DNA from: Bacteroidota bacterium
GTDB lineage: Bacteria > Bacteroidota > Ignavibacteria > 0-14-0-80-59-12
Direction of reading: 5' to 3'
Assembly (NCBI GenBank): GCA_049973045.1
Contig: JBMFJZ010000003.1
Coordinates: 142,319 to 206,318, forward strand
DNA length: 64,000 nucleotides
A program made the translations under genes and the position numbers. Shown here piece by piece: positions 1,644 to 48,742 of the stretch. Positions within the stretch are counted from its first letter, which is position 1, and each line of letters opens with the position of its first letter. The notes beneath the pieces were generated by a model. The model saw only the letters and a program-made list of their open reading frames with translations. It did no database searches and was not told the origin of the DNA.

Positions 1644-4484
1644 TTAATCTGAAAGCATCTTGAGGATTCTCGATGAAATGCTTTGGTCGACGGGACCATC
1701 AACGACTATCACGAATCGGTCGGTCGTGAAGAACTTTCGAGCAACACTCAGTACGTCATCTTTGGTCACAGCAAGTATTCTATCAGCTCTTTTATCGAAG
1801 AAATCGAGTGGCTTCTTGTCTCGCAACATATCAAAGGTACGTGACGCTACATCATCAGGAGTCTCTATGTAGAACGGGAGAAGCCCGAGGAAATGCAGCT
1901 TCGCTCGGATCAATTCGCTGTCTGCAACTCCATGCTCAAGGAGTTTTTTAATTTCACGAAAGATCCCTGCAACAACTGAATCAACGTTTCCGGGAGCGGT
2001 CTTTGTATTGAACTTCCAGTATCCAACTTGATCTCCTTTCTCCCACAACTCGCTTTTGATGCCGTAGATCATGCCTCGCTTTTCGCGAAGCTCGATACCA
2101 ACCCGGGACGTGAGCGCACTCGACGCAAAGATGTAATTCAAGATATCAACGGCTTCCTCAATTGAATCAGGGATATCATTAAATGGCGCAAATCCAATGT
2201 TGATTGTAGCTTCAGTGTAGTCGCTATCTGTAAACACTCTCACGTCCTTTCCATGAAGCTCCGGCGCTGGGGGAATTGGTTTGGTTTCTGGAGGCGGTAC
2301 ATTGGCTTTCCATTTGCCGAAGTATTTATCAGCCAGTTTCCGCATCTCGCCGTGTGACATATCGCCCACCATCACGATTGTCAGCAACCTCGGATTAAAA
2401 TATTTGTGATGAAGGGAGATTAGGTCACTGCGCCTAATTGCTGTCAACGAGCTCTCAGTAGCCATAAATGTCGAGTATGGATGACCCCGGAAGATCTTGT
2501 CGAACATGTAGTAGAAAGCCACCTCTCTCGTCGTCTTTTTCCACTGACGAGCTCTTTCTATGTGACGGCTTAATACTTTATCAATGTCATCTTGCCTGAA
2601 GCCCGGTTCTGTGACAATCTTGTATCCCGTCCGCACCATTTCGTCGGCGTCTTTGGTCAGAGAGTAGCCTTGAAAATACAGCCTCTTATACGAGCCGTCA
2701 ACGCTGAAAGAATACGGAACATAGCCCATCCTTTCAGAAAGCTCGGCATACGTTATATCCTTTGTCCCTCTGTTCATTACATCGCAAAGAACGCTGACAA
2801 TACCTGGCTTACCTCCTCCAATTGTCTCTGGAATCAGGCCTGTTTCGAAAATTCCCCCAATAAAAATTGCCGGTGCGAGGTGATTCTCTATCGTATATAG
2901 TCTGATGCCATTGCTAAGCTTGTGAGCCTTGACCATTGGAGCAATCGGTTTAGGTCGCAGCAGCGTGGCGGTATCTATAGCTGTTGTCACGCTGGCTGCC
3001 GGCAGGTTGAAGGACGTCGTGTAGTTGAAAATCGCTTCATCATCGACTTCCTGAAATGGACAGACGTCAAGCTTTTCATCTTCAGCTTCGCCTGTTTCCG
3101 CGTCTGCACCTTTTTTCGGTTTGGCATCAGGCTTCGGCAGCCCGTAAAGAACAGTTGCCTGGTCTTGATTGAAATATTCTTGCATCACTCGCTGAACATC
3201 TTCTCGTGTTACAGCCGCGACACGCTTTGAAAACTCATCAATGTAGTCAAGTCCGTAGTATGCCTCATACATACTCAAGCGTGCACCGATGTCAGCATTC
3301 TTCGTATAGTCAGTCACCTGACTGAATTCAAATCGATTTTTCACGCGCTGCAATTCATAAAGGGTAACCAGCGAGTCCTGCATCCGTTTAATTTCATCCC
3401 ATACTATACGCTCAGCTTGATAGATATTGCTGTCGGACTTCACGGCGACAGTTATGCGGAATAGGCCCTCGTCTTTTGCTGTTGGCATTCCGCCTGTCGC
3501 CATCGTTGCAATTTGTGCTTCCTCAACGAGGCGCTTGTAGAGACGGGCAGTCCTACTACGTGCGCCCAATATCATTCCTGCAACGCGTAGAGGAGCGCCA
3601 TCTGGATGCTTCAGGTTTGGCACATGAAATGCTATGTGGAGAATTGGAGCGGTAATGTCATTGTGGTAAAGGGTGATCGTTTTCTTTGCCTTCTGAGGTT
3701 GTTCTTCGATATAAACGGGCGGTGGCTCAGGGCCCCGCGGAATCTGTCCATAGTATCGATTGACAAGTTTCAGAATCTGGTTTGTATCAAAATCACCCAC
3801 CAGGACAAGAAACGCATTGTTAGGGGTATAATACGACCGGTACCATTGATACGCTTGGTCACGGGTGATGTGTCTAATATCCGTAGGCCACCCGATAATC
3901 GGATCGCGGTTCGGGTGGCTCTGGTAAGCGACGGAGTTCATGTATTCATGCATAACTCCAGACACTGCGCTCTCACTGCGCATCCTTCGCTCCTGAAGAA
4001 TTACGTTCACCTCCGATCGGAATTCAGCGGTATCAAATCTGCAGTTCTGCATTCTGTCCGATTCAATATCAAATGCAATCTCAATCTTGTTCGCCGGTAA
4101 ATATTCAAAATAGCTCGTCATGTCATTCATTGTGAAAGCGTTGAAGACGCCAGAATTCTCAGATATTGTTTTTGCGATCTTTCCTTTGTCGTAACGAGCA
4201 GTACCTTTAAACATCATGTGCTCAACTATATGCGATATGCCCGTAATCCCGAGATGCTCGTTGCGAGAACCGACCCGATAGGTGAGTTGATGATAAACAA
4301 GGGGTGCTATATGGCGTTCCATGGTGAATACGACCAAACCATTTGGCAGCTCATGCCGATATACTTTTCCCTCTTGATATTGACCTGCCCACACAATCGA
4401 AGCAAGTAAGATTATTAAGGCAAGCGCGCTGATAAGTGTAGTTTGTTTGGTTTTCATTGCCTTCTCCATTTTAGGGTTTTCCAA
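1644..4484 (-). CDS. Secreted zinc metallopeptidase, M16 (pitrilysin/insulinase) family, two tandem M16 units (946 aa)
   Basis: Inverted-zincin motif HIVEHMMFKG (HxxEH) near the N-terminus; signal peptide; length fits a fused two-half M16. Confidence 0.85.
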   Translation of the reverse strand: MENPKMEKAMKTKQTTLISALALIILLASIVWAGQYQEGKVYRHELPNGLVVFTMERHIAPLVYHQLTYRVGSRNEHLGITGISHIVEHMMFKGTARYDKGKIAKTISENSGVFNAFTMNDMTSYFEYLPANKIEIAFDIESDRMQNCRFDTAEFRSEVNVILQERRMRSESAVSGVMHEYMNSVAYQSHPNRDPIIGWPTDIRHITRDQAYQWYRSYYTPNNAFLVLVGDFDTNQILKLVNRYYGQIPRGPEPPPVYIEEQPQKAKKTITLYHNDITAPILHIAFHVPNLKHPDGAPLRVAGMILGARSRTARLYKRLVEEAQIATMATGGMPTAKDEGLFRITVAVKSDSNIYQAERIVWDEIKRMQDSLVTLYELQRVKNRFEFSQVTDYTKNADIGARLSMYEAYYGLDYIDEFSKRVAAVTREDVQRVMQEYFNQDQATVLYGLPKPDAKPKKGADAETGEAEDEKLDVCPFQEVDDEAIFNYTTSFNLPAASVTTAIDTATLLRPKPIAPMVKAHKLSNGIRLYTIENHLAPAIFIGGIFETGLIPETIGGGKPGIVSVLCDVMNRGTKDITYAELSERMGYVPYSFSVDGSYKRLYFQGYSLTKDADEMVRTGYKIVTEPGFRQDDIDKVLSRHIERARQWKKTTREVAFYYMFDKIFRGHPYSTFMATESSLTAIRRSDLISLHHKYFNPRLLTIVMVGDMSHGEMRKLADKYFGKWKANVPPPETKPIPPAPELHGKDVRVFTDSDYTEATINIGFAPFNDIPDSIEEAVDILNYIFASSALTSRVGIELREKRGMIYGIKSELWEKGDQVGYWKFNTKTAPGNVDSVVAGIFREIKKLLEHGVADSELIRAKLHFLGLLPFYIETPDDVASRTFDMLRDKKPLDFFDKRADRILAVTKDDVLSVARKFFTTDRFVIVVDGPVDQSISSRILKMLSD

Positions 4485-18887: not shown

Positions 18888-19447
18888 ATGCACGCGACCG
18901 TGATAAGATACTCCATGGCTCAGAGAAAGATAATAACAAGAGCCCGCCAAGGGCGGGCGGAACTTGTGTCAAAGTTAGAGAAGTTCAATGAAATGGAGTT
19001 TTCTGACACGGTGAGCCAACAACTTTTGACAGTTAGTGGAGCAACAATTGACGGATTACTCAAAGAAGAGAAGAAAAAGGTCAATAAAGCCGGGCACACC
19101 TCTGAAAAGTCAGATAGCTGTCCGTACATTCGATAAGCAGGATGAAAGTACTGCAGGATTTATTGAAATTGACTTAGTCTCGCATGATGCCGCAAATGCA
19201 CAGGGCGATTTCCACCATACTCTTAACGCCACAGAGGCTGCTACAGGGTGCACTGAGTCGAAAGCTAATTAACGAGGCACAGCGTTCGGTCTTTGCTGCC
19301 CGCGCTCCCTCACGTAAGAGTTTATCCGTGACAGATGAAGTAGGAGAGGACTCAACGGAACCTCCGTACAGTGATCAAACCGTGCCGACGGATTTCACGT
19401 TTACAGCTTTCCTGAAAAGTCGCCACCTTTTCAGGGAACGACAATAA
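18888..19447 (+). other. Three consecutive short ORFs in three successive frames (18888-19136, 19036-19272, 19184-19447); possible frameshift-degraded gene remnant just 3' of tRNA-Lys, identity not recognisable
   Basis: ORF track pattern; weak HTH-like segment SGATIDGLLKEEKKK; possible slippery A-run gaagagaagaaaaagg at the first frame switch. Confidence 0.25.
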
Positions 19448-19775
19448 TTAGTTTTCAACTACTTATCTGTTTTTCCCTTGCCGATGTTGGATGGTCTGTT
19501 TTTTTTTTATAACAATTCTTTTGCCCTATGTCATCTCGACAATCCTACCTCCTTCCTCATTGGACGAAAGACTCCTTCGCTTCCTTACAGCACCGGTCCT
19601 GGCTTTCATGAGACCTCTAACGCTACGCATATAGCTTCCCCGTTTTTATTGCAGGCCATCGATGTGGAAGGTCACCACGAGTTTGCTTGCATTTCTACCT
19701 CAGGTTTTGCCACGTGCCCTTCAGACTCCACTCACGGCGACCCCCTGCGCTTAAATTGCTGCACGGCACACAGAC

Positions 19776-19806
19776 AAAAAAGCCCTCGAATATCAAGGGC
19801 TTTTCG
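19776..19806 (-). terminator. Terminator hairpin directly after tRNA-Lys (GAAAAGCCCTTGATATTCGAGGGCTTTTTT on the minus strand)
   Basis: Inverted repeat plus T-run seen in sequence. Confidence 0.6.
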
Positions 19807-19878
19807 TGAGGCTGGCTGGGATCGAACCAGCGACCCTCTGCTTAAAAGGCAGATGCTCTACCACTGAGCTACAGCCCC
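19807..19878 (-). tRNA. tRNA-Lys (anticodon TTT)
   Basis: Reverse complement GGGGCTGTAGCTCAGTGGTAGAGCATCTGCCTTTTAAGCAGAGGGTCGCTGGTTCGATCCCAGCCAGCCTCA. Anticodon stem TCTGC/GCAGA, loop CTTTTAA, T-arm GCTGGTTCGATCCCAGC. Confidence 0.88.
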
Positions 19879-24712: not shown

Positions 24713-25186
24713 TTACGCAGCATCGATCATGGCAATGGCATAGGCAACCGCGCCTTCACCTGCACCAATGAATCCCATCTTCTCCGAAGTAGTCGCCTTT
24801 ACCGATACGGCTCCAATTGAGACGTGCAATATATCAGCGATGATCTTTCGCATTGGCTCAATGTACGGAGCAACCTTGGGTTCCTCGAGAACTAGCGTCA
24901 CATCCAGATTGATGACACGATAGGAATGAGCCTGGAGCAGATCGATCACTTTCGTAAGGAGCACCGTGCTTTTCGCTCCCTCCCAAGCCGGATCAGTATC
25001 AGGAAAATGCTGTCCAATATCTCCAAGCGACGCCGCACCAAGAAGCGCATCCATAATAGCATGGAGGACAACATCAGCATCAGAATGACCAGCAAGTCCA
25101 CGATCCCACGGGATATTCACTCCGCCAAGGATGAGAGGTCTGCCGGAAGCAAAGCGATGAACATCATATCCGAAACCAACTCTCAT
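24713..25186 (-). CDS. ispF: 2-C-methyl-D-erythritol 2,4-cyclodiphosphate synthase
   Basis: MRVGFGYDVHRF...GHSDADVVLHAIMDALLGA. Confidence 0.9.
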   Translation of the reverse strand: MRVGFGYDVHRFASGRPLILGGVNIPWDRGLAGHSDADVVLHAIMDALLGAASLGDIGQHFPDTDPAWEGAKSTVLLTKVIDLLQAHSYRVINLDVTLVLEEPKVAPYIEPMRKIIADILHVSIGAVSVKATTSEKMGFIGAGEGAVAYAIAMIDAA

Positions 25187-25192
25187 GATGCG

Positions 25193-25498
25193 CTATCGAA
25201 TTTCAAAACCTCTAAATGTCCCCTCATATGGTTTATATGTAACCAGTACATCCTGCACGTCGGCGAAACGAGGACCGATACGAATTTCGCCGATGAGCGA
25301 TTCAACAAGCGATCGATCCCCTTCTACTTCAATTTCTACATCGCCGTTGTACAGATTCCGGACGTATCCCACCAAGCCAAGCCGCGAAGCTCGAGAATGT
25401 ACAAACCACCGAAAGCCGACCCCTTGTACCATCCCTTTCACAATAATATGGGCGCGAACATCCATAATATATGCACCTCCCGTCGACTTATCATTCAT
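25193..25498 (-). CDS. acyP: Acylphosphatase (true start moved to the ATG that overlaps the upstream stop)
   Basis: IVKGMVQGVGFRWFV...GYVRNLYNGDVEIEVEG. The ORF-track N-terminal extension would run into the EamA gene; ATG 25498-25496 overlaps its TGA 25497-25495. Confidence 0.75.
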   Translation of the reverse strand: MNDKSTGGAYIMDVRAHIIVKGMVQGVGFRWFVHSRASRLGLVGYVRNLYNGDVEIEVEGDRSLVESLIGEIRIGPRFADVQDVLVTYKPYEGTFRGFEIR

Positions 25499-26343
25499 CG
25501 TGACAATTCCGAGATAAGAATACCTATCACAATGAACGTTGCACCGAGAATCCCCAGTGGACCAATGACTTCTCCGAGCATCCACCAGGAGATGACCGCT
25601 GCAAGCACAGGCTCAAGAGAAAAAATTAACGCCGCCCGAGTAGGCGTGGTGTCCCTTTGAAACCGTGTTTGAAGATACGTTGTCAAAAGCGTGGCAAAGA
25701 AGACCGTATAAAGAAAAGTCCCAAAAAGCCCAAGCGTCGGTTCTAATCTCACCTTCTCGACGATTACGCTTCCTCCTAACGCAAGAAATGCTGTAACCGC
25801 AATTTGAAGAAACGTCAAATGAAGAATATCACTGCGCTTGCTGAAAATATCCAGAAAAACCATGTAGAGAGCAAAGACTACCGCCGCAATAAGTGTAAGC
25901 GCATCCCCAAGATTAAACATCTGTCCCTTCGGTGAAGTCAGGAACCAGAGCCCGATGAGCACAAGAACAACGCCAGCAACGTTCCCGACTCTTGGCATTC
26001 GCCGCTCAATAGCCATCTGAAATAGGGGCGTGAAAACTACCGTCATCCCTGTAATAAAACCGGATTTCGATGCCATCGTGTATTGCAGTCCAACAGTCTG
26101 GGTCGTGAACCCGAAGCCAAGGAGAATGCCAAGAACCAGTCCGTCAAAGAATGCTCTTCGATTGATGCTGCGGATCGACCCGAAGAAAATGAGAACCAGG
26201 ACAATCGCTGCAATTGAAAAGCGTATTCCCACAAACAAAAGTGGTGAAATGGAACCCAACGCATCCTTGACCAGTGCAAAAGTTCCGGACCAAATGATGG
26301 TAGCGCCGAGTAGAAAACCTTCAGCCCGGGTCCGAGTCGTCAT
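25495..26343 (-). CDS. EamA/DMT-family transporter (10-TM drug/metabolite exporter)
   Basis: Two EamA-like halves and a hydrophobic profile. Confidence 0.75.
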   Translation of the reverse strand: MTTRTRAEGFLLGATIIWSGTFALVKDALGSISPLLFVGIRFSIAAIVLVLIFFGSIRSINRRAFFDGLVLGILLGFGFTTQTVGLQYTMASKSGFITGMTVVFTPLFQMAIERRMPRVGNVAGVVLVLIGLWFLTSPKGQMFNLGDALTLIAAVVFALYMVFLDIFSKRSDILHLTFLQIAVTAFLALGGSVIVEKVRLEPTLGLFGTFLYTVFFATLLTTYLQTRFQRDTTPTRAALIFSLEPVLAAVISWWMLGEVIGPLGILGATFIVIGILISELSR

Positions 26344-29823: not shown

Positions 29824-30228
29824 TTATTTCACCTTGTTTTCTTTTAACTCAACCTTTTTAAGAACAAAATCTTTTGCTTTTAAAGCAAGTTCAAAGCACT
29901 CTTTTGCCTCATCAACAGATGGTATGTAAAATTCTTCCGGGTATCTAACCTCAACCGCATAATCTGTAAGATTGCCGATAGTTAAGTTTTTGAACTCGCT
30001 ATCCTGTTCTGAACATAATTTTAAGAGGGTTTCAAGATCATGCGCCTTTCCAAAATCTACCTTTTTAGAAACAAGGTATGCTTTTAGCATTTCCTCAACA
30101 ACTTGCTGACGATGAAAACAAACGGGGCCTGTGGAGATTTCATTTTCAGGAAAAGTTAATTCATGTTTTGCAATATTAAAATCTTCCATTGCTTTTATTG
30201 CCCAATTTTTTATTTCCTTGTCAATCAT
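29824..30228 (-). CDS. HEPN-domain protein; toxin of an MNT-HEPN type VII-like TA pair
   Basis: HEPN pattern with HRQQVVEEMLKAYL; ATGA overlap with the upstream MNT gene. Confidence 0.7.
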   Translation of the reverse strand: MIDKEIKNWAIKAMEDFNIAKHELTFPENEISTGPVCFHRQQVVEEMLKAYLVSKKVDFGKAHDLETLLKLCSEQDSEFKNLTIGNLTDYAVEVRYPEEFYIPSVDEAKECFELALKAKDFVLKKVELKENKVK

Positions 30229-30506
30229 ATTTTAATTCCTTCTTTCAAAGCATATCTTGTAACACAGCCTATCCTGCCCTTTTTGATTTCTACTTCCTCT
30301 TCAGAATTAATTACTATATCTGCATAAACATACAATTCGGCTAGTGCTCTCCTTGTGGCACTTGCAATCTGCATCTTCTCTTTAAAACCAAATGTCCTCT
30401 CAGTTATTATTAGAAAATCACTGTTCTTTGAGTAATCTCCTCTTGCCCTTGAACCAAAAAGGATGACCTGTTTTATAGAAACCCCCATCTCGTTGAGACA
30501 TTTCAT
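30225..30506 (-). CDS. Minimal nucleotidyltransferase (MNT); cognate antitoxin of the HEPN gene
   Basis: NTase motif ILFGSRARGDYSKNSDFLII; start may instead be the ATG at 30488. Confidence 0.7.
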   Translation of the reverse strand: MKCLNEMGVSIKQVILFGSRARGDYSKNSDFLIITERTFGFKEKMQIASATRRALAELYVYADIVINSEEEVEIKKGRIGCVTRYALKEGIKI

Positions 30507-45209: not shown

Positions 45210-45247
45210 TTTTGAATTTCAATTCACAATAGATAAAGAAAAGCTCG

Positions 45248-45277
45248 GGCGGTCCGCATCGCGGCGAGGACCGCCCT
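45248..45277. terminator. Bidirectional terminator hairpin GGGCGGTCCgcatcgcggcgaGGACCGCCC, T-rich on both sides
   Basis: 9-bp GC-rich inverted repeat seen between the gdh stop and the next gene start. Confidence 0.6.
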
Positions 45278-45298: not shown

Positions 45299-46444
45299 TC
45301 ATGCCCAACCGCGGAGACGCACCGCCTCAGCGACACGGCTTACCGCAACAAGGTAGGCTCCAAGTCTGTTATGAACCTTCCGTGCCTGTGCTTCACGATG
45401 CACAGCGTGGAAGGCTGCTGTCATCTTCTTGTCCAGTCGCTCATGAACCGTCTCTTCATCCCAGTAATATCCATAAGCGTTCTGCACCATCTCGAAGTAA
45501 GAAACGGTGACTCCCCCGGCGTTGCACAGGAAATCCGGGATCACATATACGCCGTTCTGGTGAAGAATCTTGTCTGCTTCCGGAGTTGTTGGTCCATTCG
45601 CCAACTCAGCAATGACTCTCGCCTTAATACGACCCGCATTGGACTGAGTGATGACATTTTCGAGCGCCGCGGGGAAAAGGACAGTTACATCCAGCTCAAG
45701 AATTTCCTCGTTGCCGATACTCTCAGCCCCGGGGAAACCAACGACCGATCCAGTCTTCTCCTTATGAGCTATAACCTTCTCGAAGTCGAGCCCTTTAGGA
45801 TCATAGATACCACCCTTGGAATCGGACACAGCTACAACTTTAAGCCCAAGGAGCTCTATACCGAGCTTATGAGCAAAATAGCCGGCGTTTCCATAGCCTT
45901 GGATAGCAGCAGTTGCTCCTTTCAGGTTAATGCCGAGAGCTTTCCCTGCTTCACGCAGGCAATAGATTCCACCTCTGGCTGTGGCATCGCCTCGCCCAGC
46001 AGATCCGCCGAGAGGCAATGGCTTGCCGGTAATAACCCCGAATTCATTATGCCCTCTCAGGAAGGAAAATTCATCTGCCATCCAAGCCATAATCTGTGGT
46101 GTTGTATAGACATCAGGAGCTGGCACGTCCATATCCGGACCTAAGATACGTCCTACTTGACGGATGTAGGCCCGACTCAGCCGTTCTATCTCGCCTGGGG
46201 ACATCTCTTTCGGGTTACAGATGATGCCTCCCTTGGCACCGCCGAGCGGGATATCCACAACAGCAGTTTTCCATGTCATCCATGCCGCCAGAGCACGCAC
46301 AGTATCGATCGTCTCCGCGGGATGGAAACGGATACCACCCTTTGTCGGACCACGGGCATCATTGTACTGTACACGAAATCCATGAAAAATTTTTGTCTTC
46401 CCATCATCCATTTTCACTGGCAGCGTCACATGAAGTTCCCGCAT
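45299..46444 (-). CDS. gdhA: Glu/Leu/Phe/Val-family (glutamate) dehydrogenase; ORF as called starts downstream of an in-frame TAG. The uninterrupted gene would start at ATG 46570
   Basis: Catalytic Lys motif [11 protein letters not shown] and NAD(P) Rossmann motif GYGNAGYF. The upstream in-frame sequence [41 protein letters not shown] matches the GDH N-terminus. Confidence 0.8.
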
Positions 46445-46705
46445 AGGCCAGCGCAGGAATTCGTGAATCGCCGGATCGAGTTTGAGAATCGCCGCAGCTT
46501 CATCAAGTTGCTGCTAGGCAATTTCAAATGGGTTCATCGTTGTCTGAGTTGAAAAAGCTACTTGTTGCATAGTTTGCTCCTATGATTAGGTGATTAAGAT
46601 GATCCAGTTATTTGAAAGGAAGTATTACAGCACAAAGAGATCAGGTTAAACATGATTGAGTAAAATGTTCAACTATCAGATATCAGATTACTGTTGTTTC
46701 CTACA

Positions 46706-48742
46706 TCACTTTACAGGTGCTCCACTCGGCACCTCAGTGTCTGGTGTGAGCAACGAAAGTGTTCCAGCCCCATCATCCACAGCAAGGAGCATCCCCTGTG
46801 ATTCCACACCCATGAGCTTTGCTGGCTGAAGATTCGCAACGACGATAATTGTTTTCCCGATAAGCATATCGGGGGTATAGTGTTCCCCAATACCTGCGAC
46901 GATCTGGCGCGGTTCCCCACCAACATCAATCTGAAGTTTGATGAGCTTCTTTGATTTTGGCAGACGCTCTGCAGCGAGAATTTTCGCTGTTCGTAATTTG
47001 ATGCGTCGAAACTCGTCAATGGAAATTTGCTCATCCTTTACTGGTGCCATTTGAGGTTTCAAACCAAGCTTTGTCAATTCTCGTTCTATAACCTCATCTT
47101 CAATTTTTGTGAACAAGATTTGAGGTTCACCAAGCTTTTGACCTTCTGGGATATCTGCCTCGCCTGCTGCATCCCAGAGCGCACCGGCAAGTGGACCGGA
47201 CTCTCCAAGCATCTTCCACATTAGCCGAGTCGTAAACGGAATGACTGGTTCAAGCAGCACAGTAAGGACACGAATTGCTTGAAGTGATAGATGAATTGTT
47301 GTTGCGCATTGGGGATGATTGCTCCTCAATGTTTTCCAGGGCTCGGAGTCATTGAAGTATTTATTTGCAAATCGTGCAAGGTTCATTGCTTCAACGATAG
47401 CATCCTTGAAGCGAAAGTTTTCATAAAGCTCTCCAACGACTTTAGGAGCCTCTCTAAGCCGTCTCAGCAATTCTTCATCTCGATCACTGAGTTCACCACG
47501 CGCCGGAACAAATCCTCCAAAGTTCTTCTGAGCAAACGTCATAGTTCGATGAACAAAATTCCCAAGTGTGTCAGCAAGCTCATTATTTACCCGTGCCTGA
47601 AAATCCTTCCAGTAAAAATCTGTGTCCCGATACTCCGGAAGGTTTACCGCAAGAGCATACCTTAGCAAGTCAGGAGGAAATGTTTCGAGGTAGTCCTTCA
47701 AATAAATTGCATAGTTCCGACTCTTGGAAAGTTTTCCCCCTTCAAGATTGAGGAACTCATTCGCAGGGACATTGTCCGGTAAGATATAGCCCCCTTTCGC
47801 CATGAGCATTGCCGGGAAGACAATGCAGTGAAACACTATGTTATCTTTCCCAATGAAGGCAACATATTTCGTGGCATCGTCCTGCCAGTATTCCTTCCAC
47901 TTTTCAGGCATACCGATTCGCTCAGCCCACTCCTTCGTCGAGGAGATATATCCAAGAACAGCCTCAAACCAGACATAGAGAACTTTATCCTCGTAGCCTT
48001 CAAGAGGAACCTTCACCCCCCATCGGAGATCGCGGGTCACGGCTCGATCTTCAAGCCCCTCAGCAAACCAGCTTTCGCAATACTTTCGCACATTCTCTTT
48101 CCAGTCAGTTTTTGACCGCACATACGCTTCAAGCTGAGGCTGGTACTCTCCGAGGGGGAAATACCAGTGCTTCGTTGTGCGAATGACTGGTGCTCTGCCG
48201 CAAATCTTGCATCGAGGATTAATAAGCTCACGAGGATCCAGTAGGCTACCACACTGTTCACATTGATCACCCCGTGCTTCAGTATAACCGCATACAGGAC
48301 AAGTCCCTTCAACGTATCGGTCAGCGAGGAACATTCGATCCTGTTCGCAATACAACTGTTCTTCTTCCTTCTCCCTTAGAATTCCCTTGTGATAAAAATC
48401 AAGGAAAAATTCTTGAGCTGTCCTGTGGTGAACAGGTAGCGTTGTTCGCGAGTAATTGTCGAAGGAAATCCCGAATGCTGCAAATGCATCACGATTCATC
48501 GCATGGTAACGATCGACGATGACTTTTGGATCCACTCCTTCTTTCTCTGCTGCAATTGTAATGGGGACCCCATGCTCATCGGAGCCACAAATGAAAACGA
48601 CGTTCCGTCCCTTCAGCCGTTGATATCGAACGTAGAGGTCTGCAGGCAGATAAGCGCCAGCGAGGTGCCCAAAATGGATAGGACCATTTGCGTAAGGTAA
48701 TGCTGCAGTGACGAGGATACGTTTTGGGGGTTCAGGATGCAA
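46706..48742 (-). CDS. metG: Methionine--tRNA ligase with a C-terminal tRNA-binding domain
   Basis: HIGH-region ALPYANGPIHFGHLAG, zinc knuckle cysteines, KMSKS loop, C-terminal EMAP-like domain. Confidence 0.9.
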   Translation of the reverse strand: MHPEPPKRILVTAALPYANGPIHFGHLAGAYLPADLYVRYQRLKGRNVVFICGSDEHGVPITIAAEKEGVDPKVIVDRYHAMNRDAFAAFGISFDNYSRTTLPVHHRTAQEFFLDFYHKGILREKEEEQLYCEQDRMFLADRYVEGTCPVCGYTEARGDQCEQCGSLLDPRELINPRCKICGRAPVIRTTKHWYFPLGEYQPQLEAYVRSKTDWKENVRKYCESWFAEGLEDRAVTRDLRWGVKVPLEGYEDKVLYVWFEAVLGYISSTKEWAERIGMPEKWKEYWQDDATKYVAFIGKDNIVFHCIVFPAMLMAKGGYILPDNVPANEFLNLEGGKLSKSRNYAIYLKDYLETFPPDLLRYALAVNLPEYRDTDFYWKDFQARVNNELADTLGNFVHRTMTFAQKNFGGFVPARGELSDRDEELLRRLREAPKVVGELYENFRFKDAIVEAMNLARFANKYFNDSEPWKTLRSNHPQCATTIHLSLQAIRVLTVLLEPVIPFTTRLMWKMLGESGPLAGALWDAAGEADIPEGQKLGEPQILFTKIEDEVIERELTKLGLKPQMAPVKDEQISIDEFRRIKLRTAKILAAERLPKSKKLIKLQIDVGGEPRQIVAGIGEHYTPDMLIGKTIIVVANLQPAKLMGVESQGMLLAVDDGAGTLSLLTPDTEVPSGAPVK

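Follow-up and report, generated by a model that had tools for sequence, protein, structure and literature searches.

A glutamate dehydrogenase gene from a Bacteroidota bacterium carries an in-frame TAG at an invariant glutamine codon, probably as a recent nonsense allele

The stretch of DNA analyzed here (the window, 64 kb) contains a reading frame for glutamate dehydrogenase (GDH) on its minus strand. The frame spans positions 45299..46570 and consists of 423 codons and a TGA stop (45301..45299), with a single interruption at codon 19. It begins at an ATG (46568..46570, minus strand) that is also the start of the 423-aa gene called in eight contigs of a sister lineage described below. A Shine-Dalgarno-like AGGAG, read from the sequence, is located at 46577..46581 on the same strand and ends 6 nt upstream of this ancestral ATG. 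The 18 codons that run from ATG 46570 to the interruption encode MQQVAFSTQTTMNPFEIA. The interruption itself is a TAG at 46514..46516 (minus strand), which corresponds to a CAG (Gln) altered by a C-to-T transition. After the TAG, the frame continues with 24 residues, the last of them Met43, and then RELHV..., and it is the same frame as that of a 381-aa ORF (46444..45299) opened by the Met43 ATG (46442..46444, minus strand). This ATG is the first ATG, GTG, or TTG past the TAG, and 69 nt lie between the two. A first-pass annotation of this DNA had placed the TAG in frame with the 381-aa ORF starting at ATG 46444 and had described the upstream codons as matching GDH N-termini. Its coordinates, its residues for the frame from ATG 46570, and its numbering of the TAG as codon 19 were all correct when re-read from the sequence, translation gave the same relation to the 381-aa ORF, and an intact homologue, P0001, spans all 423 codons. 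P0001 is the best database match (423 aa, 99% identical over the full length, Gln at position 19). Because it covers the entire 423-codon frame, the 18 upstream codons are read as coding sequence and not as a chance similarity.

The GDH gene is flanked upstream by a gene for methionyl-tRNA synthetase and downstream by one for a PPDK_N-domain protein. The latter lies past a terminator-like hairpin located 3' of the GDH stop (45235..45276, minus strand). The hairpin, read by eye, consists of GGGCGGTCC, a 12-nt loop, and GGACCGCCC, followed by a T-rich run, and it suggests that GDH forms the end of its own transcription unit. A consensus scan for promoters and terminators did not list this hairpin because its 12-nt loop exceeds the 8-nt limit of the scan. 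The surroundings of the gene are ordinary chromosome. T9SS sorting domains and a cluster of ECF-sigma, FecR, and TonB-receptor genes elsewhere in the window agree with the label 'Bacteroidota bacterium' that NCBI gives for the same protein.

The assignment of the frame to the GDH family comes from domain searches, structural homologues, and motifs. In the intact homologue P0001, which serves as the repaired form, the Pfam ELFV dimerization domain (PF02812) matches residues 42-169 with E = 2.5e-55, and the catalytic/NAD(P)-binding domain (PF00208) matches residues 188-421 with E = 1.1e-79. The 381-aa ORF also matches both domains, with the catalytic domain complete and the dimerization domain aligned from position 3 of its profile. 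Solved GDHs from Thermococcus, Pyrococcus, and Thermotoga align to residues 12-422 with E values down to 3e-169. The translation contains GGAKGG, the glycine-rich motif of the catalytic lysine (GGxKGG), and GYGNAG, the dinucleotide-binding motif (GxGxxG), and both align with the solved GDHs. By these comparisons, the frame encodes a typical hexameric-type GDH of about 420 aa that belongs to the Glu/Leu/Phe/Val dehydrogenase family. It resembles the hexameric members of that family (PDB 1EUZ, 1BVU, 1GTM, and 1B26) in having the same two Pfam domains, an end-to-end alignment over residues 12-422, and the motifs GGAKGG and GYGNAG. It differs from them in that the frame is broken at codon 19, and the uninterrupted ORFs that remain are devoid of the N-terminal 27-42 residues kept by every homologue.

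In a comparison with L013-L092, and among the matches listed, this GDH is 82-87% identical to GDHs from metagenome-assembled genomes (MAGs) of Chloroflexota/Anaerolineae and only 71-75% identical to Chlorobium-type GDHs. The presence of a Chloroflexota-like GDH in a Bacteroidota-like window could reflect either lateral transfer or extreme conservation. Relatives among GTDB species representatives are at 82% identity or less and none is conspecific, again among the matches listed. The closest non-conspecific relatives, at 87% identity, are on three Anaerolineales-type metagenome contigs (L093-L095) where GDH is present as a tandem pair of paralogues, 428 and 430 aa long (positions 2413-3699 and 4001-5293 in L093). 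The gene neighborhood in these three contigs is unrelated to that of the window.

The direction of the change at codon 19 can be read from relatives. The sister lineage, which has about 93% DNA identity to the window and the same gene order, was seen on at least ten contigs (L002-L009, L011, and L012) that come from different samples. Codon 19 is CAG in all ten of these contigs, and position 19 is Gln in each of 118 aligned homologues. Since both the sister lineage and the wider family agree on this residue, comparison identifies the TAG as the derived state, produced by a CAG-to-TAG transition at an invariant Gln. The first-pass annotation had pointed out that a single base change from CAG, AAG, or TAC would suffice; the sister lineage and the 118 homologues settle the ancestral codon as CAG. 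One of the sister-lineage samples, Ga0078972, was traced by literature search to a Yellowstone metagenome. A degenerate pattern search of JGI metagenomes did not find the TAG allele and returned two contigs only, both of the sister lineage and both with CAG.

One sister-lineage contig, L012 (JGI Ga0315298_1000006), has an unusual GDH gene. Its central 540 nt, corresponding to about 45550-46090 of the window and to the NAD(P)-binding domain, are far diverged from both lineages. Every 60 nt between roughly nt 540 and 1020 contain 20-44 differences, with fewer toward the margins, and at its two ends the gene matches the sister lineage exactly. The reading frame remains open, with 90 amino-acid differences. 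The pattern resembles that of a domain swap by recombination or of a chimeric assembly.

Is the TAG a real allele? Two further contigs have this TAG as well, L010 (NCBI GCA_049700715.1, a 281-kb contig) and L001 (ENA ERZ3623746, a SPAdes-style contig of 27.6 kb with about 4x coverage), and a second NCBI record (a 344-kb contig) has the same shortened product. The window, L010, and L001 belong to the population bearing the TAG allele, referred to here as lineage A. One of the two contigs differs from the window at 4 positions and the other at 7, over about 7 kb. The three sequences are thus three haplotypes, with differences at 47006, 46871, 46635, 45506, 49405, 48449, 44967, and 44889 and an indel at 45213, some of which are common to two of the three. 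The first-pass annotation had allowed for an error. It could be argued that the organism truly has CAG and that the TAG arose during sequencing or assembly, given that the ENA contig has just about 4x coverage and that all lineage-A records might stem from one site or one data set. However, a random consensus error is unlikely because the TAG recurs in three non-identical assemblies that were built differently, and the mixture of 281- and 344-kb contigs with a SPAdes-style contig makes a systematic, platform-specific error unlikely as well. Furthermore, no intact allele turned up when about 15 billion proteins were searched for an exact match to the lineage-A protein repaired to Gln at position 19. 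An error is therefore very unlikely, and these comparisons favor a genuine strain-level allele.

A second question is whether TAG is a stop codon in this organism at all. Among 39 long ORFs in the window, 23 end in TGA, 12 in TAA, and 4 in TAG, and a fifth TAG terminates a shorter, acylphosphatase-like ORF located directly before an ispF-like ORF. The five genes that end in TAG (the acylphosphatase-like ORF and the DJ-1/PfpI, HD-domain, beta-eliminating lyase, and UbiA genes) do so at sensible positions. The sister lineage stops at identical positions in the DJ-1/PfpI and HD-domain genes, the two that were compared. When all six frames of the 64 kb were scanned for long segments with one stop between them, no second interrupted conserved gene was found. 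The tRNAs of the window are Leu-GAG, Lys-TTT, and Ala-CGC, to which Rfam adds only an SRP RNA; a tRNA with a CUA anticodon was not found in the 64 kb, nor were pyl genes among the annotated proteins of the window. TAG is read as Gln in code 15, used in some phages, and pyrrolysine is another reassignment of TAG. The sole point in favor of such a code here, with TAG as a sense codon for Gln or pyrrolysine, is that the TAG falls at an invariant Gln position. Against it are the five genes terminated by TAG at sensible positions, two of them with stops common to the sister lineage, the single interrupting TAG in 64 kb, and the absence from the window of tRNA-CUA and pyl genes. Judged from these stop codons, the window uses the standard code, and reassignment has a negligible probability and is excluded for practical purposes. 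This agrees with the first-pass annotation, which had seen no other in-frame TAG in conserved genes and had considered a reassigned code unlikely.

The scan also raised a candidate for a second interrupted gene, 139 aa-TAG-159 aa at 25612..24713, which was rejected as two separate ORFs, the acylphosphatase-like and ispF-like ones mentioned above. These two ORFs (24713-25585, minus strand) are in the same frame with a TAG and two codons (6 nt) between them, an arrangement that a naive scan could misread. Elsewhere in the window, three short plus-strand ORFs in different frames (18888-19450) resemble, by eye, decayed pieces of a transposase or integrase. They are near the tRNA-Lys gene (19806-19878), the SRP RNA, and the tRNA-Ala gene.

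How have annotation pipelines dealt with the interrupted frame? Prodigal-type callers report a protein that begins at Met43 (P0003, 381 aa) for the ENA contig. A second protein, P0002 (396 aa), begins with MLKLDPA... where the window encodes ILKLDPA, the first codon being ATT at codon 28. Two NCBI accessions, MGB9772512.1 and MGC9092736.1, hold this shortened 396-aa product, in which ATT is read as Met and the internal stop is left unflagged. The non-canonical ATT start in the NCBI annotation (46487..46489, minus strand) is probably a mis-annotation. An SD-like motif (GGAG, GAGG, or AGGA) was not found upstream of ATT28, ATT35, CTG39, or ATG43, while the ancestral start has one.

The segment missing from the short products is as well conserved as the rest of the protein. 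Across the 118 homologues, mean conservation is 0.89 for residues 12-42 and 0.91 for residues 43-423, and none of the 118 starts after residue 7. Residues 12-42 are also within the ordered chain of solved GDHs, whose alignment begins at residue 12. The first-pass annotation had envisaged Met43 as the possible true start of orthologues, preceded by a divergent region; these data show otherwise. Judged against its homologues, the truncated form is not a natural isoform of the GDH family, though both Pfam domains formally remain.

The age of the mutation was assessed from substitution patterns. Compared with the sister lineage, the GDH gene has 57-61 synonymous and 6 non-synonymous differences, giving a dN/dS of 0.027-0.029. 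This is the lowest value among ten genes compared, the others ranging from 0.047 to 0.195. When changes were polarized with eight outgroup genes, 16 synonymous and 3 non-synonymous changes (TAG included) fell on the lineage-A branch, and 24 and 1, respectively, on the sister (B) branch. Within lineage A there is a single GDH difference, at a third codon position. The frame has no indels or second stops, and neither outgroup polarization nor dN/dS detected relaxed selection in GDH; such extra lesions and relaxation are expected only in older pseudogenes. A gene drifting neutrally along the entire lineage-A branch should have gained about 100 non-synonymous changes (roughly 0.115 substitutions/site over 963 sites), and at most five were observed. 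Because decay is absent and non-synonymous changes are far fewer than the neutral expectation, either the stop would be very young or the gene would still be in use. In other words, the stop is estimated to date from about the final tenth of the lineage-A branch, or else the gene is still under selection.

The explanation that appears likely is a recent nonsense mutation with standard termination at UAG-19, which would make the gene a very young loss-of-function or strongly hypomorphic allele. A nonsense mutation was one of the options in the first-pass annotation, and it gains support from the location of the in-frame stop where orthologues have Gln, one C-to-T change away. Under the standard code, ribosomes starting at ATG 46570 would terminate after 18 residues. 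Full-length GDH would then be lost or be cut to the level permitted by rare near-cognate misreading of UAG, and any product restarted downstream would come without the conserved N-terminal helical segment. Hence GDH enzyme function would be lost or reduced, and the time since the mutation would have been too short for further damage. Several observations pull in the other direction. The complete lack of decay is equally consistent with a gene that is still functional, and both Pfam domains remain in the 381-aa ORF. Its presence in three haplotypes means that the allele has had time for spread or recombination. Moreover, no intact lineage-A allele was found among the roughly 15 billion proteins, which suggests that the TAG may be fixed in lineage A rather than being a transient deleterious variant.

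Two ways in which a working enzyme might still be produced have to be weighed against this nonsense-allele explanation. Translation might restart past the TAG to yield a truncated but active GDH, which would have 381 aa if the restart is at Met43 and 396 aa if it is at ATT28, an example of a non-canonical codon. Termination at codon 19 leaves an 18-residue peptide, and the 18-codon upstream ORF would bring terminating ribosomes to 69 nt before Met43, the ORF that opens there keeps both Pfam domains, and the coding sequence has not decayed. On the other hand, hexameric GDHs use their N-terminal helices as part of domain I, which builds the hexamer, and the residues at stake (12-42) belong to the ordered fold of the solved enzymes, are conserved like the core, and are present in every one of the 118 homologues. 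The candidate starts have no SD-like motif. Functional reinitiation is thus weakened because a ribosome-binding site is absent and the lost segment is conserved, and an active restarted enzyme is quite improbable.

Alternatively, full-length GDH might still be made if UAG is decoded as Gln, either by a near-cognate tRNA-Gln acting at a useful level or by an amber suppressor whose gene is in another part of the genome, on a mobile element, or on a phage. Insertion of Gln would restore the wild-type protein since Gln is the ancestral residue. The base following the TAG is C, and a C after the stop is a weak termination context in E. coli work. Of the three stop codons, TAG is also the one least used in the window (4 of 39 long ORFs), and the GDH gene is undecayed. 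However, TAG terminates at least five genes of the window, including the two whose stops coincide in position with those of the sister lineage, and a suppressor tRNA is absent from the 64 kb. A CAG-to-TAG change is, moreover, among the commonest routes to an amber codon. Programmed readthrough sites have a stop that is conserved among relatives; here the TAG is in lineage A only, and the other relatives have CAG or Gln. A local hairpin is predicted around the TAG, but it is not significant (z = -1.43), as 17 of 200 shuffled sequences fold equally well. Decoding as Gln is on balance unlikely. A stronger version, in which a TAG fixed in lineage A is decoded by a suppressor tRNA from elsewhere in the genome, a phage, or a mobile element so that a working GDH depends on the suppressor, is highly improbable. 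If true, a core metabolic enzyme would be under natural amber-gated expression in a bacterium whose code is standard in all other respects. Overall, the locus resembles systems of stop-codon reassignment or programmed readthrough in having TAG where relatives have Gln. It is unlike them in that TAG terminates normally, a single interrupting TAG occurs in 64 kb at a site that relatives do not conserve, the window has neither a suppressor tRNA nor pyl genes, and no significant stimulatory RNA structure surrounds the stop.

A closer parallel to the nonsense-allele explanation is provided by rpoS. It is well established that natural populations can carry early amber alleles. In E. coli K-12, translation has been reported to restart downstream of an amber codon at rpoS codon 33 (Gln in the K-12 reference), yielding a shortened protein with partial activity. 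In ECOR strains of the same species, rpoS amber alleles have been described at codons 11, 26, 42, and 200 (PMC3074542). The GDH allele resembles these natural rpoS alleles in being an early in-frame amber made by a single base change, in a gene that is otherwise intact and conserved, present in some strains and absent from close relatives. It is unlike them in that it affects a metabolic enzyme of an uncultured organism and has no SD-like motif past the stop. The GDH TAG is an ordinary nonsense polymorphism of the rpoS-amber kind, not recoding or programmed readthrough, and it calls for no new mechanism.

The finding bears on how the locus is represented. Public records show an intact protein of 396 or 381 aa, whereas the evidence points to a gene of 423 codons that an amber codon interrupts, and the two shorter 'proteins' would be the result of gene callers working around a premature stop. 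In metabolic reconstructions of lineage-A MAGs, GDH should be treated as probably lost or impaired. The locus also offers a clean case of a nonsense allele before further decay, with an intact sister lineage that is well sampled (Yellowstone metagenome). Such a pair could be used to test, in nature, how quickly nonsense alleles are purged, fixed, or rescued.

A separate observation concerns another part of the window. On the minus strand at 29824-30506, two small ORFs of 93 and 134 aa overlap by 4 nt and are located between the genes for methylmalonyl-CoA mutase and mutL. The pair looks like a candidate nucleotidyltransferase/HEPN toxin-antitoxin system.
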